A stretch of 64,000 bases of DNA from NCBI GenBank assembly GCA_000092065.1, contig CP000590.1; one strand, written 5' to 3'. This document shows, in pieces, positions 6,241 to 21,949 of this stretch. Source of the DNA: Ostreococcus lucimarinus (lineage: Eukaryota). A model generated the notes under the pieces. It saw only the letters and a program-made list of their open reading frames with translations, was not told the DNA's origin and made no database searches. How positions within the stretch are numbered: position 1 is the stretch's first letter; every line of letters starts with the position of its first letter. The translations under genes and the position numbers were made by a program.

Positions 6241-6433
6241 GCGTCGTGATCGACTCGTCACGTATTTAAGGACTCTTCTTGGGTCGCGAACGGTCGATCG
6301 TCGTCGCGGCGTCGTGCTCGAGTCGTCACGTATTTAAGGACTCTTCTTGGGTCGCGAACGGTCGATCGTCGTCGCGGCGTCGTGATCGAGTCGTCACGTA
6401 TTTAAGGACTCTTCTTGGGTCGCGAACGGTCGA
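6241..6433. repeat. 68-bp tandem repeat, about 2.8 copies; unit starts at 6241, 6309 and 6377
   Basis: Unit gcgtcgtgatcgaStcgtcacgtatttaaggactcttcttgggtcgcgaacggtcgatcgtcgtcgcg repeats with only 2 mismatches between copies. Each copy carries TCACGTA (ACGT core) and TATTTAAGG (TATA-like). The array lies 270-460 bp upstream of the DNA2 ATG. Confidence 0.9.
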
Positions 6434-6700
6434 ATTCAAAGCCCGCGACGACAGACGCGGCGTCGCGCGGCGTCGCGGCGCATCGCGACGCGCGCGAGCG
6501 GACGCGCGCGAACGCGCGAGCGCGCGACGCGCGACGCGCGCGTCGTCGTCCCGACGCGTCGAGAGCGCGGCGCGAGCGACGACGCGCGACGACGACGCGA
6601 CGCGAGGGGCGACGACGGGACGACGAGACGAGACGAGACCACGACGACGCCGACGACGCCGACGACGACGCGCGAGCGCTCGACGAGGGAAGGGAGCGAA

Positions 6701-9700
6701 ATGAGCGGGAAGAAACGCGCGCGGGGCGGGCGGCGGGTGACGGTGGACGCGGAGGTGGAGACGTCGCAGCGGGAGCGGGTGACGTACGGGGCGCCGAGCG
6801 GGACGACGACGACGACGACGACGGCGACGGCGACGACGACGACGGAGGCGAATGGGAGCGCGCGGCACGGTGATAGCGCGGCGATGGAACGATTGTTCGC
6901 GTTAGGCGCGGGAACGGTCGCGGGGGGGGGCGAAAACGATGCTGATGATGGATTAGGGGTGTGGTTGAGCGAGAGCGAATTCGGCGGCGGCGGCGGCGGC
7001 GCGAGGGGGAAGTCGAACGCGGTGGGCGCGAACGGCGAGCGTGGGAGGCTTTCCGTGCCCGTGGCGCCGGCGTGGGAAGAATCATCGGCGGAGAAGTCAC
7101 CGGGGGGGCGGAGACGACGGGCGAGCCGCGATGGCGAGGAGCGAAGACGATCGGAGGATTTGTTTGAGGAATTGTTGACAAACGTCGAGCGCGGCGCGCC
7201 GGCGCGAGACTCCGCGCCGGCGACGATGGAAGTCGCGACGACGACGACGGCGTCCGCGGTGAATACACGCAAAGAAGGTGACCACACGCTTGCGCTGGCG
7301 TCGATGGATCCCGATTGGAACGACGAGGATGAGGATAGTCAGGCGCTCATCGACGCCGTGACGCTCGCGGAGAAGCGCGCCAAGATGGCAAAGTCGGCTT
7401 CTGCGACGACGACGCAAGCGAGTAACGCCGTGCCTTCGCTGAGCGATATAACCCTAGACGATGGCGATGACGACGACGACTTATTCGCCGCCGCGGTGGA
7501 TATGGCTGAAAAAGCGCGCGACAGTCGCGTTGAGTCCGGAACGCCGTCCACGGCGACTTCCCCTAGGAAATCGCCTAGGAAATCCGCCGCGGTCGCGGCT
7601 TGCGCGCGCACGCAATCGGCGACTGCGCGAGTTAAAATTGAAGATGGCTTTATGGAAGATTGCAAGGCGGAGTTGCAGAAAGCGTTGGAATTCGCGAGAG
7701 AAGAAGCGGAGGCAGAGACTGAAATTCTAGGCACCTGGTTCGTCGAAAGCGTCGCGTCGCCGCGGATTGGCTGCGTCGAATCCCTCGTCCTGACGAAGGC
7801 TAGCGGTGCAAAGAAGACTGTCGTGCTGAAGGGTTATTGGCGAGAAACCCTGGTTTCAGTGGGAGATTCTCTGATCTTGTACTGTTTGCCCGGCGTGGCG
7901 CGCAAAGAAGACGTCGCGAAGGATATTGTCGAAGTCACTGACGATGGAGGGGTGATGATTATTCTTTTCCCGGCGTACTTGATAAGTGCGACGACGATAG
8001 GGAATGGTATGGACTGCCCTCGACAATCAGTGTTGCAGCAACAACTGCAGACGACGTGGGGTGACGCGAACGAGGCGGCGACGATCGGTACTATTATGCA
8101 CGATCTCGTTGAGCACGCGCTCCTCGTCGGATCGAGCCGAGCACTCGTGCCGATGGCTTCCAAGGTGAAGAGCGTGATCGAAAGCAACGTGGACAATATA
8201 TTCGCCATCGATTCAACCGAAAAGAAGCTGCAGCAAAGAATAGATGCGACCATTCCAGGTGTGGAATCATGGGCTAACAAGCTCACGGCGGCGTCTCGTG
8301 TGCCAAAGCTTGGTCGCGCGAAGCCCGGCGGCAACGCCCAGGTGCGAATGAACAGAAAAGCTGCGCACGATAAGCTTCGAAGAAAGTGCACTGTGGGCGT
8401 CGAGGCAAGCTTGGATTACAATACGTCTGCAACGTTGCAAGTTGACGACATGATTGACATAGAAGAACTCATTTGGGCTCCAAAACTTGGATTAAAAGGC
8501 ATCTTGGACGGCGTCGCAAACGCCGTCATACGTCAATCGAAGGAAGATTTACCATTGCCGAGCGTCGTTCCGATCGAGTTGAAGACGGGTAAGTGGAAGT
8601 CTGTCGGTCACGACGCACAAGTCTTGTTTTATAATCTTATGATCGGCGAACGCTACGGCAAAGTGTCTCCTTTCGGCGTATTGCACTACACCACGGACGA
8701 TAATGACGACGAAGGCACGAGTAAAATTTTCACGAATAAGCCGGCTAACATCAGCGCTCTGATGCAGCGTCGGAATCACCTTGCGGCAATGTTAAGACCG
8801 ACGCCCGAAGAAGCGATGCAACACAACGCTCCAGTCCCGCACGGCAAGGCCCGTCTCGGGAACGGTAAGCTGCCGAAGATGCAGCCACAAAGCTGGTGTG
8901 AGCGTTGCTTCTCACAGCACGAGTGTTTCAGCTTGCATCGCGCGCTCGAGGGAGGAGACGGCGAAACAAGCGAGCTCGGCAATTTGTTCATCGGCGCCAC
9001 CTCGCATCTGAACCAGACTCACGAAACAGCAATCCGTCACTGGATTCATCTGATTGATTTGGAATCTTCCGAGTCTTTGCGCAAGCGTGCAACTCCGTGG
9101 CTTCCGGTTGAACTCGTCAATCGTCGCGCGAGCGACACGTACGCGATCGACGACCTCGCTTTTGTTCGTGAAAGCACGCAAGAGAAGTCTGCATTCGTCG
9201 GTGATAATCACTATTACATATTCAAACCCTCAAGTTCTGTCGCAGAAAGCGTTCTGAAGAGAGTTGGGATCGCCGATCGCGTCGTCTTGAGTCGCGACAA
9301 AGGCTTGACGGTGATTTCTCGCGCACAAATCATTCGCATCTCAAATGATTCTGGCGAGGTCGTCATCGAAATGGCTACAGAACGACCATTACGCCGGGAT
9401 ACCGCAAATAATGCGATGGCACCGTTACCGGGATCGTCCGAAGAGAGCGCGCTATGGAGAATCGATAAAGACGGGGCTTCTCTCACCATGGCCGCGAGGA
9501 CTCGTGGAAACGTTCTCGCGTTGTTTACCCAAACAGAACGCGCCGCTATCATTCGTCGACGCATCATCGATTTGGAGCGACCCAAGTTCGCTCCAATTGG
9601 TGACCATAAGAGGAAAATCGAAGTCGCACTCAAAGATCTCGGCTTCCCTTTGAACGACGAGCAGCTTTTGGCAGTCGAAAAGATCGTTACGGCTGAAGAT

Positions 9701-18062: not shown

Positions 18063-19097
18063 TTATCGCGGTGCGCCGTCGGTGGACGTCGGCGCGTCGT
18101 CGTCGTCGTCGGCGGTCGGCGACGCGTCTTCGTCTTCGTCTTCGTCTTCGTCTTCGTCTCGCGCGCGCTCGGCGTCTTTGATTTTCGCGTCCGCCTCGTT
18201 CGATCGATTCGCGATTTTCACCACCTTGCGCGCGGGCACGACGGCTTCTATGGCTTCGCCCCAATCGCCGCGCTCGAGAAACGACGTCAAGACGTCCGCC
18301 GTTTGGTTCACGGTGAGCACGGGCGCGCCGCGCGTCTCGAGAAACTCGCCGATCGGCAACCGCGCGTGTTCGACGCCCAATTCCCGAGCCTTGCGCAGCG
18401 TCAGCCCTTTGTGTCGATTACGATCGATGAACCCACCGATGACGTACGTCTTCCCCGCCTCTATCTCGCGCAGTTCGCGCTCGCTATCGGCGGTGAGATA
18501 CACGAGCGACTTCGCCGTCGTCTCGCTCTCCGCCGCCGTCTCCCTCAACGTCTTCCCCAACCGCACGACGTGCCAATTCTCCCACCCCGCGTTCATCCTT
18601 CCCATCTGTTCCTCGAACGCTTCGCTCATTCGCGTGAAGCTCATCTTAAACGGCGCCGTCGTCTTACAATTCCTCTCGTACGCCGCGCGCAACTGTTTCA
18701 TCAAGCTCCCCCACCGCTCGCGTTCCATCGTCGTCGTCAGATCCTCGTCGCAATCGATCGTCAATCCGTACGCCGACGAGAGCTGCGCCCGTCGCCTTTC
18801 CTTCCTCTCCGCCGTCTCGCGTCGTCGCGCCTCGATCCTCGCGCCGCGCTCGACGAAAAACGCGTCCCGCGCCTCGCTCGACATCGCGTTCACTTTGGAG
18901 TGAAACGCCGCCTTGGTCGACGCCGCGACGTCGGCTTTGCGCCTCTTCGCCTCGGCGCGCTTCGCGAGCTTGGCGTCGCATCGTCGCTGTCGCTTGAGCC
19001 GCTTTTTCATCGCGCGCTTGCTCTCGGCGCGCCGGACGACGTCGCCATCGTCGCCGTCGTCGCGGGTCGCCATGACGCGCGCGCCGCGCTCTATCAC
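18063..19097 (-). CDS. TRM10: tRNA (guanine9-N1)-methyltransferase TRM10 (SPOUT class); alternative start 19073
   Basis: GKTYVIGGFIDRNRHKGLTLRKARELGVEHARLPIGEFL...VLTVNQ... matches the TRM10/RG9MTD catalytic domain. Confidence 0.75.
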   Translation of the reverse strand: MIERGARVMATRDDGDDGDVVRRAESKRAMKKRLKRQRRCDAKLAKRAEAKRRKADVAASTKAAFHSKVNAMSSEARDAFFVERGARIEARRRETAERKERRRAQLSSAYGLTIDCDEDLTTTMERERWGSLMKQLRAAYERNCKTTAPFKMSFTRMSEAFEEQMGRMNAGWENWHVVRLGKTLRETAAESETTAKSLVYLTADSERELREIEAGKTYVIGGFIDRNRHKGLTLRKARELGVEHARLPIGEFLETRGAPVLTVNQTADVLTSFLERGDWGEAIEAVVPARKVVKIANRSNEADAKIKDAERARDEDEDEDEDEDASPTADDDDDAPTSTDGAPR

Positions 19098-19193
19098 CGT
19101 CGTTTTCGCTCTACATCCGTCGGCGGACGATAACCCTAAATCAGAAGGAGATTATTTGTTACACAAAATTGTTCACGACTACGACGCGAAGAC

Positions 19194-19201
19194 ATATAAA
19201 T
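19194..19201 (+). promoter_or_regulatory. TATA box TATAAATA in the divergent TRM10 / metallothionein-like promoter, about 120 bp upstream of ATG 19322
   Basis: acaTATAAATAgagcgctc read directly in the sequence. Confidence 0.45.
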
Positions 19202-19321
19202 AGAGCGCTCAAGACTTGGTAAACGACCGTCCGCGCCCCGAAACGCGGCGTCACACGCGCGCGCGGGACCACTCGCGAGCGAACGAACGAACGAGCGACA
19301 CGTTTCAAATTTCTTTTCTTC

Positions 19322-19477
19322 ATGGCGTGCGATAAGTGCGGCGACGCGTGCGCGTGCGGCCCGGGTGCGTGCGCGTGCGCGAGCGCGCTGACGTGTCATG
19401 CGTGCGGGCACAAGAGTTGCGGCTGCGCGCGATGTAGATGCGCGTGCGATTCGTGCCAGTGCCAGACGAAGAAGTGA
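19322..19477 (+). CDS. Metallothionein-like cysteine-rich small protein (51 aa, 16 Cys). Not in the ORF track because it is below the length cut-off.
   Basis: atg gcg tgc gat aag tgc ggc ... tga translates to MACDKCGDACACGPGACACASALTCHACGHKSCGCARCRCACDSCQCQTKK with CxC and CxxC clusters. TATA box about 120 bp upstream. Confidence 0.6.
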   Translation: MACDKCGDACACGPGACACASALTCHACGHKSCGCARCRCACDSCQCQTKK

Positions 19478-19534
19478 TGATTGCGTCACTTTTTTCGTCG
19501 GCGCATTCCGCCGCGCGCGCTCGGGGCGCGAGTT

Positions 19535-19590
19535 CCGAGGGCGACCGCGGAGGATGCGACCGAGGGCGACCGCGGAGGATGCGACCGAGG
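19535..19590. repeat. 25-bp tandem duplication (ccgagggcgaccgcggaggatgcga x 2.2) in the 3' region of the metallothionein-like gene
   Basis: Two perfect copies plus a partial third. Confidence 0.85.
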
Positions 19591-19688
19591 GGAAGGATGA
19601 AAGTTACCGTGGCAACACTCAATAGCAGTGCTTTTCAATCAATCAATACACGATTTTCCACTGAAACAACTTTTTAATGAATAATACT

Positions 19689-19706
19689 AAACCCTAAACC
19701 CTAAAC
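19689..19706. promoter_or_regulatory. Telo-box / interstitial plant-type telomere repeat AAACCCTAAACCCTAAAC upstream of the organellar HSP90
   Basis: (CCCTAAA)2.5 is the reverse complement of TTTAGGG. It sits 15 bp before ATG 19721 and about 140 bp before the likelier transit-peptide start at ATG 19847. Confidence 0.6.
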
Positions 19707-19720
19707 TAAGTAAGGCGTTA

Positions 19721-21949
19721 ATGAATAATAAGGCGTCGCGCGCGTCTTTGTATGGGTCGGTCGGTCGGTGTCGCGTCGCGTCCTTCGCGCGTCCACGGCG
19801 TTCGCGACGCCGAAATCCGCGTCGCACGACGACGCGGATTTCGGCGATGCTGACGGTGGCGCGCGCGTGTCGACGGCGCGCCGCGCGCGCGGTCCGGCGC
19901 GGCGTCGCGGACGCGCGCGCGACGCGCGGGGCGTCGACGACGACGGATCGCGCGTGGGACACATCTTCATCATCTGCGTCGGCGTCGGCGCGGACGTCGA
20001 CGGCGCGGACGACGAGGCGCGGACGGGCGACGGAGCGCCTGGCGTTCCGCGCGGAGACGAAACGATTGCTGGACATCGTGACGAACTCGCTGTACGAGGA
20101 CAAGGAGGTGTATCTGCGAGAGCTGGTGTCGAACGCGAGCGACGCGCTGGAGAAGGCGCGACACGCGGCGCTGACGGAGACGCCGAACGAGGAGGAACTC
20201 GCGATAAAGATCGCGACGGATGAGGGCGAGGGGAAGGTGCTGGTGGTGTCGGATAACGGGGTCGGGATGACGCGGGAGGAGCTGATGGAGAATTTGGGGA
20301 CGATCGCGCGGAGCGGGAGCAAGGCGTTTTTGGAGGGGTTGGACGCGGACGCGGACGCGGCGTCGAACATCATCGGGAAATTCGGCGTGGGGTTCTACGC
20401 GAGTTTCATGGTGAGCGATAAGGTGGAGGTGATCTCGAACGCGGGCGCGCGAGGGGATGGGAAGGCGTGGAAGTGGAGCTCGACCGGGGATGGAGAGTTT
20501 ACGATTGAGGAGGCGACGGAGAGCGACGAGGCGCCGACGCGGGGGACGAAAATCGTGATGCACATCAAAAGCGACGATAAACACTTGACGTCCAAGTGGG
20601 GGGTGGAGACGGTGCTGAAAAAGTACAGCTCGTTCGTCGCGTTCCCGGTGCTGTTGAATGGGCACAAGATGAACGACGTCGGGGCGCTTTGGATGAAGGA
20701 TGAAAAGGACATAACCGACGACGATTCCATCGCGTTTTACCGCTTTGTGAGCGGCGCGAGCGACATGCCGCCGTTTCGCATGTCGTTCAAAGCCGATGCG
20801 CCCATGACGATTCGAAGCTTGCTGTACTTTCCCGAAGAAAATCCCGAACGCGTCGCCGGATTCGGCGGGCAGACGAATTCGGGCGTGTCGCTGTACGCCA
20901 GGCGCGTGATGATTCAAGAGAAGACGGAAAAATTGCTCCCGGCGTTTTTGCGCTTTGTGCGCGGCGTGGTCGATTGCGAAGACATCCCGCTGAACATCTC
21001 GCGCGAGTCGCTTCAAGATTCCATGCTCGTCATGCGGCTCGGCCAAATAATCACAAAGCGCGTGCTCAAGTTTTTGGATGAAAAGGCGAAGAAGGAGCCG
21101 GAAAAGTACAACAAATGGTTCGCCAATCTCGGCTTCTTCTTGAAGGAGGGCGTGTGCTCGGAGTACGCGTACAAACTCGAACTCGCAGAGCTGTTGCGTT
21201 ACGAATCGAGCTCGACGGAGACTGGAAAATTGACGTCTTTCCGCGAGTACGCCGCGCGCATGCCCGAGGGACAAGACAAAGTGTATTACATCGTCGCGCC
21301 GTCGCGGCTGCAAGCCGAAGCGTCGCCGTATTTGGAAGCGGCGAAGTCGCGGGGCTACGAAGTTTTGTTCTTGTACGCTCACATCGATGAGTTCGTGATG
21401 CAGCACTTAATGAGCGTCGCGGGCAAGCAATTGGTGAGCGTTGAAGCCGCAAATCTCGACGTCGACGGCGAAAAAGCCGACGGTGAAGAGTCAAAATCAA
21501 ACGACGCCGCGGCGTTGGACGACGCCGCGGGCGCGGAACTTTGTAAGTGGTTCAGCGACGACGCTCTCGCGGGAAAGCTCAAGGAGGTGAAGCTGAGTAA
21601 CAGATTGGTGAGCTCTCCCGCGCTCATCTCCGGACACGAGCCCGAAGCCATGAGACGGTACCGCATGGTTCAAACCATGGCGAGCGACGCGGCGGCGAGT
21701 AAAAAGCTCGCCGAGATGTCCAACGACTTCTCCATGATGACGCTCGAGTTGAATCCGAAACACGAAATGATCAAAAGGATCAACGCCGCGCGCACGAGCG
21801 AAGACGCCGGCACGCGAAGATTAGCCGCGCTGGTCGCCGAACAAATATTTGACAACGCGCGCGTCGCCGCGGGATCTTTAGACGATCCTCGAGCGATGCT
21901 CGGTCGTCTGAACGAAATTCTCGAAAAGACGCTTCCGGCGAAGGAGTAG
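19721..21949 (+). CDS. Organelle-targeted HSP90 (TRAP1/HtpG/HSP90C-like; no MEEVD). The true start may be ATG 19847 (MLTVARACRRR...).
   Basis: HSP90 N-terminal signature LYEDKEVYLRELVSNASDALEK; VSDNGVGMTREEL; IGKFGVGFYASFMV; middle and C-terminal domains throughout. Ala/Arg/Ser-rich presequence. Confidence 0.9.
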   Translation: MNNKASRASLYGSVGRCRVASFARPRRSRRRNPRRTTTRISAMLTVARACRRRAARAVRRGVADARATRGASTTTDRAWDTSSSSASASARTSTARTTRRGRATERLAFRAETKRLLDIVTNSLYEDKEVYLRELVSNASDALEKARHAALTETPNEEELAIKIATDEGEGKVLVVSDNGVGMTREELMENLGTIARSGSKAFLEGLDADADAASNIIGKFGVGFYASFMVSDKVEVISNAGARGDGKAWKWSSTGDGEFTIEEATESDEAPTRGTKIVMHIKSDDKHLTSKWGVETVLKKYSSFVAFPVLLNGHKMNDVGALWMKDEKDITDDDSIAFYRFVSGASDMPPFRMSFKADAPMTIRSLLYFPEENPERVAGFGGQTNSGVSLYARRVMIQEKTEKLLPAFLRFVRGVVDCEDIPLNISRESLQDSMLVMRLGQIITKRVLKFLDEKAKKEPEKYNKWFANLGFFLKEGVCSEYAYKLELAELLRYESSSTETGKLTSFREYAARMPEGQDKVYYIVAPSRLQAEASPYLEAAKSRGYEVLFLYAHIDEFVMQHLMSVAGKQLVSVEAANLDVDGEKADGEESKSNDAAALDDAAGAELCKWFSDDALAGKLKEVKLSNRLVSSPALISGHEPEAMRRYRMVQTMASDAAASKKLAEMSNDFSMMTLELNPKHEMIKRINAARTSEDAGTRRLAALVAEQIFDNARVAAGSLDDPRAMLGRLNEILEKTLPAKE

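Follow-up and report, generated by a model that had tools for sequence, protein, structure and literature searches.

Does the spacer between the TRM10 and HSP90 genes of Ostreococcus lucimarinus encode a metallothionein? The question is raised by a short cysteine-rich open reading frame (ORF) in a 64,000-nucleotide stretch of contig CP000590.1, referred to here as the window. In coastal seas, few eukaryotic phototrophs are as abundant as Ostreococcus and its relatives, which are also used as minimal model algae. Little is known of how they buffer Zn, Cu and Cd, and the scarcity of described microalgal metallothioneins is emphasised in reviews (PMC7216689, PMC9504759). A conserved, unannotated 51-amino-acid candidate is a concrete gene for metal work and a possible metatranscriptome marker of metal stress. 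The case also shows how short GC-rich genes drop out of annotation.

The original prediction placed the ORF between TRM10 and HSP90. Pfam matches confirmed both flanking genes, and the region is arranged as follows.

18066-19073, minus strand: left neighbour, a TRM10-type tRNA m1G9 methyltransferase gene, divergent from the ORF (PF01746, 6e-24)
19322-19477, stop included, plus strand: coding sequence of the 51-aa Cys-rich protein, translation MACDKCGDACACGPGACACASALTCHACGHKSCGCARCRCACDSCQCQTKK
19847-21949, plus strand: right neighbour, an HSP90-family gene (PF00183, 3e-95)

The longest HSP90 ORF begins at 19721. The ATG at 19847 (MLTVARACRRR...) matches the gene start in contig L002. It is probably the start of HSP90, in place of 19721; the 42 codons with which the long ORF opens are probably non-coding.

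The Cys-rich ORF is present on the plus strand and its 51-aa translation is identical to the peptide first reported. Sixteen cysteines had been claimed. The actual count is 15, and the peptide string given with that claim also contains 15. They occupy positions 3, 6, 10, 12, 17, 19, 25, 28, 33, 35, 38, 40, 42, 45 and 47. Hence, cysteine accounts for 15/51 residues (29.4%), and the protein also contains 10 Ala, 5 Gly and 2 His. The cysteines form six CxC motifs, one of them within a CxCxC, and four CxxC pairs (C3/C6, C25/C28, C35/C38 and C42/C45). There are no CC doublets. Briefly, six N-terminal cysteines are followed by a short Cys-free linker, ASALT, and then by nine cysteines together with an invariant histidine, His30 (in CGH). 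The N-terminus reads MACDKC and the protein has no signal peptide-like stretch. One predicted tryptic peptide is CGDACACGPGACACASALTCHACGHK. Among the 256 ATG-initiated ORFs of at least 40 aa in the window, 29% Cys is an extreme outlier; the runner-up has 11%.

The ORF had been called unannotated, and our searches agree with this. The exact 51-aa protein is missing from a collection of 15 billion proteins that includes the RefSeq proteins of O. lucimarinus CCE9901 for this window and proteins derived from MMETSP transcriptomes. Ten other long ORFs of the window have exact matches in the same collection (for example, XP_001420073.1 and XP_001419908.1). We also looked up eight further variants of 50 or 51 aa by exact match and none was present. 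Since no 50/51-aa form occurs in the collection, the 51-codon gene appears to be unannotated everywhere. Metagenome gene callers gave only two calls of the gene, and both were over-extended upstream (199 and 168 aa).

A word-index homologue search with the 51-aa peptide returned no matches. We ran phmmer exhaustively over 1.84 billion cluster representatives, which showed no related annotated protein. Two relatives did appear, P0040 (E 1e-17) and P0041 (E 1e-10), which are the two over-extended calls; their C-terminal 51 aa match the query at 90% and 72% identity with every Cys kept. Scanning JGI metagenome contigs with the resulting three-sequence alignment gave 25 loci. From these loci, two ENA contigs and the window we drew 23 complete copies, which represent 12 distinct DNA sequences and 11 distinct proteins that are 71-100% identical. 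Neither viral contigs nor 185,579 prokaryotic genomes contained a relative of the 51-aa protein. Hence, a viral or bacterial origin of the gene was rejected.

All 23 complete copies encode 50 or 51 aa. They share the same ATG and register, have no internal indels and stop at codon 51/52. Poor conservation of the ORF and its cysteines in related genomes had been named beforehand as grounds for refuting the proposal, and the result favours the gene. Across the 11 protein variants, 15/15 Cys columns are invariant, as is His30, and 18 other columns vary. The probability that 0/18 variable columns would hit a Cys by chance is 2e-4. In a further 14 columns the only changes are synonymous, including TGC/TGT exchanges at four Cys codons.

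What does the protein do? Metallothioneins bind several d10 metal ions in metal-thiolate clusters and are often induced by metal or stress. Operationally, they are defined as proteins of up to 300 aa with 15-35% Cys, less than 10% aromatic residues and CxC-type motifs (PMC7216689). The present protein has 51 aa (50-51 aa in 23/23 complete copies). At 29.4%, its Cys content lies within the 15-35% range. It has no aromatic residues, as originally claimed, and none occur in any of the 11 variants. Its six CxC and four CxxC motifs are built on 15 Cys columns that never change, set among 18 that do. By these measures the protein falls within the operational metallothionein class on every sequence-level criterion.

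We therefore favour the following reading, with a probability of about 0.65. The ORF is a genuine nuclear gene of O. lucimarinus that had gone unannotated, and its product is most likely a metallothionein; we infer its transcription, its translation and the binding of metal. The functional call is drawn from composition and Cys pattern alone, because the family searches and profile comparisons described below gave no similarity to known metallothioneins. The product would be a cytosolic protein of 29% Cys. Thiolates of the 15 invariant cysteines would enclose several metal ions, Zn(II), Cd(II) or Cu(I), in metal-thiolate clusters, and the invariant His30 probably helps metal coordination. Such clusters would provide metal buffering or detoxification. 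Two clusters are suggested by the layout, with 6 Cys in the N-terminal half and 9 Cys plus His in the C-terminal half. M2Cys6 and M3Cys9 are known metal-thiolate clusters and, by analogy, each chain might bind some five divalent ions. A role in handling Zn is suggested by the conserved His.

The main rival, unlikely but tenable, is that the mini-protein is translated and is not a metal buffer. It could be a zinc-knuckle- or zinc-ribbon-like binder of partners or nucleic acids, a redox thiol protein, or a carrier of Fe-S or Cu. The four CxxC pairs could make two Zn(Cys)4 sites, but 29% Cys and six CxC motifs are typical of metallothioneins and not of folded zinc fingers. Gly29, Arg37, Arg39, Asp43 and Ser44 are also invariant and, together with His30, suggest constraint beyond the supply of thiolates. 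Against this, the 18 inter-Cys positions vary freely and there is no aromatic or large hydrophobic core residue. Nor did AlphaFold2 find a confident fold. The model, built from the three-sequence alignment, was of low confidence (pLDDT 52, pTM 0.25), which fits a protein that folds only around metal without being proof of it. The missing homology to known metallothioneins speaks for this alternative, but no Pfam zinc-finger family matched at E<=10 either.

The metallothionein reading and this alternative both take the ORF to be translated. A very improbable view is that it is a chance ORF, an untranslated stretch of GC-rich, partly repetitive (GCGTGC)n DNA whose bases spell Cys-Ala by accident. 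At 60% G+C, as in the window, stop-free frames are common, and long ORFs overlap on the opposite strand. TRF also detects an imperfect 6-nt repeat at 19345-19387, where (CGCGTG)n overlaps part of the Cys/Ala run. Against this view, start, stop, frame and 15 cysteines are kept over 12 DNA sequences, down to 71% protein identity, and no other ORF of the window exceeds 11% Cys. Substitutions argue in the same direction. Third codon positions carry an excess of variable sites (20), compared with 11 at first and 13 at second positions. For pairs of copies, dN/dS in the ORF frame ranges from 0.17 to 0.65, narrowing to 0.20-0.45 among the more divergent ones; the value of 0.65, for the window against contig L024, comes from very few substitutions. 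Nearly every comparison in 4/5 other frames gives a dN/dS close to 1 or higher. The exceptional frame is the antisense frame that shares third positions, where dN/dS falls to 0.19-0.6 in the more divergent pairs. The dN/dS of the ORF is itself only moderately low.

Hence, start, stop and frame are kept and dN/dS is below 1 chiefly in the ORF frame, the pattern of protein-coding sequence. Because the ORF is a Cys outlier in the window and is conserved in relatives, we judge it to be beyond chance. Conservation of frame and cysteines, and purifying selection in the ORF frame, lead us to conclude from the alignments that 19322-19477 is a real protein-coding gene, with selection acting mainly on the cysteines.

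Homology between clades extends beyond the ORF. It spans 19222-19604 of the window, taking in ~100 nt 5' of the ATG, the ORF and ~125 nt 3'. By this alignment, the gene is a compact ~380-nt unit (19222-19604) of upstream block, 51-codon ORF and 3' flank. The parts outside the ORF are listed below.

19222-19321, plus strand: conserved 5' flank, a candidate core promoter and 5' leader; homology to other clades starts at 19222
19254-19283, plus strand: upstream block CACGCGCGCGCGRGACSACTCGCGAGCGAA, a candidate cis-regulatory or initiation element found by alignment
19478-19604, plus strand: conserved 3' flank, a candidate 3' UTR, with 79-98% nucleotide identity to loci in the second genomic context described below
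19535-19591, plus strand: 25-nt tandem duplication in the 3' flank (TRF, 2.3 copies, 100% matching)

In the 5' flank (19222-19321) a pyrimidine-rich leader precedes the ATG. The 30-nt block CACGCGCGCGCGRGACSACTCGCGAGCGAA is identical in 8/8 aligned loci, from five clades, except at its degenerate R and S positions. It contains the palindrome CTCGCGAG. The block is unique in the window even when three mismatches are allowed, and it occurred in 0 of 100 shuffles. By eye, the invariant block contains no metal-response (TGCRCNC) or copper-response (GTAC core) element. A (CGAA)n / CGAGCGAA microsatellite at 19276-19298 (TRF) differs in copy number with clade; it is mostly missing in L009 and has one extra unit in L024. 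On the 3' side, the original prediction noted a 25-bp tandem duplication after the stop at 19535-19590. The duplication is there and ends at 19591. It is specific to the O. lucimarinus type, and the sister-clade contigs L009, L017, L018 and L024 have a single copy. RNAalifold predicted hairpins in the 3' flank, in which we found no compensatory changes. Rfam models searched over 18900-19900 gave nothing across the unit and only sub-threshold matches outside the gene.

The ORF had also been credited with a TATA box of its own, which lies just outside the conserved unit.

19152-19219, plus strand: segment X, ~70 nt, which holds the TATA-like motif and lies directly 5' of the conserved unit in the window
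19195-19202, plus strand: TATAAATA, 127 nt 5' of the ATG, haplotype-specific

The box was reported at 19194, about 120 bp upstream. It is present, with its start at 19195 and 127 nt before the ATG, and is the sole copy of the 8-mer on both strands of the 64-kb window. The box does not belong to the conserved gene. It reads TATAAATA in the window, L011 and L012 and ATACAAATA in two other O. lucimarinus-type contigs, L014 and L015. On this comparison TATAAATA is a single-base variant of some haplotypes. The alignments indicate that the conserved upstream element is the block CACGCGCGCGCGRGACSACTCGCGAGCGAA, not the TATA box, and the function of that block is presumed. The TATA box may be functional in this strain, though recent and haplotype-specific.

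Segment X has a different position in other genomes. In the sister clade (L009, L023 and L024) it reads ATACAAAYGG and lies ~440 nt downstream of the ATG. This is ~150 nt past the unit, where segment X adjoins the 3' end of a convergent gene (L024:6406-6476 and L009:1217-1282). A C-to-T change in the segment X of the window yields TATAAATA. The window has the order X-unit and the other context the order unit-~150 nt-X, so that, as aligned, the two are circularly permuted. A tandem duplication or a circular intermediate would produce such an arrangement, and we infer a mechanism of this kind.

Is the gene always found between TRM10 and HSP90? Three contexts were observed. The first is the TRM10-HSP90 spacer, in which the gene occurs only on O. 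lucimarinus-type contigs (L011-L015, 94-99.9% nucleotide identity to the window). The spacer measures 773 bp in the window versus ~285 bp in two other clades. In these clades, with TRM10 identities of 87-88% (L002) and ~55% (L003-L008), TRM10 and HSP90 are still divergent neighbours and the short spacer has no Cys-rich ORF. Conservation in syntenic regions had been the expectation, and in its simple form it was rejected by these empty ~285-bp spacers. Contig L002 (ENA scaffold KOPF15-1...scaffold_22785) itself looks chimeric. A run of N separates its two sides, which are 98-99.7% (HSP90 side) and only 87% (TRM10 side) identical to the window.

The second context is found on L009, L016-L019 and L022-L030, which represent two or three clades. 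Here the micro-protein is 76-92% identical to that of the window and the flanks are ~85% identical between clades at the nucleotide level. The gene lies downstream of a cullin gene, a ribosomal protein L18a-like gene and two genes with no Pfam match. The L18a label comes from a tblastn match to a locus so annotated in relatives. Species with 68-72% cullin identity keep the upstream neighbour of this context and have no Cys-rich ORF there. The third context (L010, L020-L021 and L031-L035, 71-75% identity) places a KH/SAP/WW-domain gene upstream and a TPMT-like methyltransferase gene directly downstream. In L021, this TPMT-family (thiopurine/thiol S-methyltransferase-like) gene occupies 6329-7234, on the same strand and ~170 nt after the stop of the Cys-rich ORF. 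Pfam scans of the neighbouring genes gave no link to metal biology.

Given three different neighbourhoods that vary with clade, and empty spacers elsewhere, the comparison of contigs indicates that the gene occupies synteny breakpoints and has moved. The conserved non-coding block is shared by the clades other than O. lucimarinus, and this suggests that all of them are Ostreococcus-like.

Relocation also bears on the last alternative. It is scarcely credible that the peptide is irrelevant and that the conservation comes from a role outside coding, as a regulatory element of RNA or DNA or as an upstream ORF that controls a neighbouring gene, for example HSP90. In favour of this, the 30-nt block and 3' flank are as strongly conserved as the ORF, and in the window the HSP90 ATG follows 370 nt after the unit. 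Against it, in other clades the neighbours of the unit are neither HSP90 nor TRM10, substitutions are codon-periodic, Rfam has no match over the unit and the 3'-flank hairpins lack covariation. Because conservation is codon-periodic and the neighbours change, the chance-ORF and purely non-coding explanations are, on these alignments, largely excluded.

The spacer around the gene is variable. Position 19089/19090, 16 nt upstream of the TRM10 ATG at 19073, is a hotspot of structural variation and forms the TRM10-proximal boundary. Contigs that are 98-99% identical on the TRM10 side have at least four different sequences beyond it. At this position L011 and L012 have an extra 270-310 bp, and L014 and L015 have a 171-bp replacement of 19089-19172. 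Past the same point L001 continues with unrelated sequence up to the contig end. Telomere-type repeats, AACCCTAAA at 19131-19139 and (CTAAACC) at 19687-19706 (2.9 copies), bracket the extra spacer DNA. Of the CCCTAAA heptamers in the 64-kb window, 3/4 lie in the telomere-type repeats of the TRM10-HSP90 spacer. The right-hand repeat is flanked by a direct repeat, TTAATGAATAATA (19676 and 19721); it varies with haplotype and is absent in L014. Closer to HSP90, a perfect 16-nt inverted repeat with a 5-nt loop occupies 19809-19845 and ends 2 nt before the ATG at 19847. In Rfam it matches only MIR7486, at 34.6 bits, below the gathering score of 67. L014 has a changed left arm, and L002 lacks the repeat.

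A fuller scenario can be drawn, which as a whole we regard as improbable. The gene would found a metallothionein family that is confined to Ostreococcus-like picoalgae, and it would travel as a self-contained minigene of ~0.4-0.6 kb that has moved to new chromosomal positions even among closely related clades. In O. lucimarinus the minigene would have landed in the TRM10-HSP90 spacer circularly permuted, so that a 70-nt piece that is 3' elsewhere now supplies a TATA box; interstitial telomere-like repeats flank the segment. A tandem-duplication or circular-DNA intermediate would fit such a history, as would structural polymorphism that continues in natural populations. The less usual features of the locus are that the minigene is relocated and permuted and that the spacer is hypervariable. 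Together with this spacer, the shifting position of the gene gives a tractable, small-scale example of relocation in a genome that is very compact.

We return to the metallothionein reading and its place among known systems. Metallothioneins are a polyphyletic class, and absence from the curated families is normal. Pfam-A, including PF00131, PF01439, PF02068 and PF02069, yielded 0 families at E<=10. NCBIfam yielded 0 models and a profile search of all PDB chain sequences 0 matches at the same threshold. Using hhalign, we also compared the protein with eight metallothioneins (wheat Ec-1, Arabidopsis MT4a and MT2a, human MT2A, N. crassa, SmtA, Fucus and CUP1). Probabilities were 1-24%, and 3-43/60 shuffled controls scored as high. 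A link to plant or algal metallothionein families, which an HMM check was to reveal, was thus not found. Of the original prediction, the real, unannotated metallothionein-like gene has strong comparative support; neither the TATA box as part of the gene nor a tie to plant or algal metallothionein families is supported. By these searches the 51-aa protein would be, in effect, a new family within the metallothionein class, outside every curated Pfam or NCBIfam family.

Like other operational metallothioneins (Binz-Kagi families; PMC7216689), the protein is small and Cys-rich, has its cysteines only in CxC and CxxC motifs and lacks both a signal peptide and a confident apo fold, and its cysteines are invariant while the spacers drift. 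Unlike them, it has no sequence relationship to any curated family. With plant type 4 proteins (Ec, PF02068) it shares the green lineage, a two-part Cys layout and a conserved His next to Cys. A His in this position is conserved in Zn-binding metallothioneins. The N-terminal 6-Cys region, MACDKCGDACACGPG..., looks similar to the start of wheat Ec-1, MGCDDKCGCAVPCPGG... Wheat Ec-1 has ~81 aa, 17 Cys and 2 His; the present protein differs in its Cys spacing and has 15 Cys and one invariant His. For the two type 4 sequences, hhalign gave probabilities of 18.5% and 5.2%, with 4/60 and 8/60 shuffles as high. We treat the comparison with Ec-1 as a lead rather than a test.

Other families offer partial parallels. 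Fungal copper metallothioneins of the N. crassa type (family 8) are likewise very short, with CxC and CxxxxC units and no CC doublets. They have 26 aa, 7 Cys and a single cluster. For the N. crassa sequence hhalign gave 24% with 3/60 shuffles as high, and homology is unsupported. Cyanobacterial SmtA/BmtA (PF02069; ~55 aa) are similar in size, and SmtA uses both His and Cys to bind Zn. Unlike the 51-aa protein, SmtA adopts a zinc-finger-like fold and contains aromatic residues and just 9 Cys, and the two do not match.

According to the reviews, one Ostreococcus protein was named metallothionein in GenBank in 2019; among annotated proteins, the exhaustive phmmer search showed none related to the ORF. 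The survey of Balzano & Sardo 2022, as it is described in PMC9504759, lists 18 predicted protist metallothioneins, mostly from diatoms and dinoflagellates; comparison with these predictions is by that description only, and overlap is possible. Environmental Cys-rich proteins have been reported by Lehembre 2013 and Ziller 2017 (as cited in PMC7216689). It is these environmental proteins and predicted protist metallothioneins that the 51-aa protein resembles in kind, as a lineage-specific mini-protein recognised by composition and not by homology.
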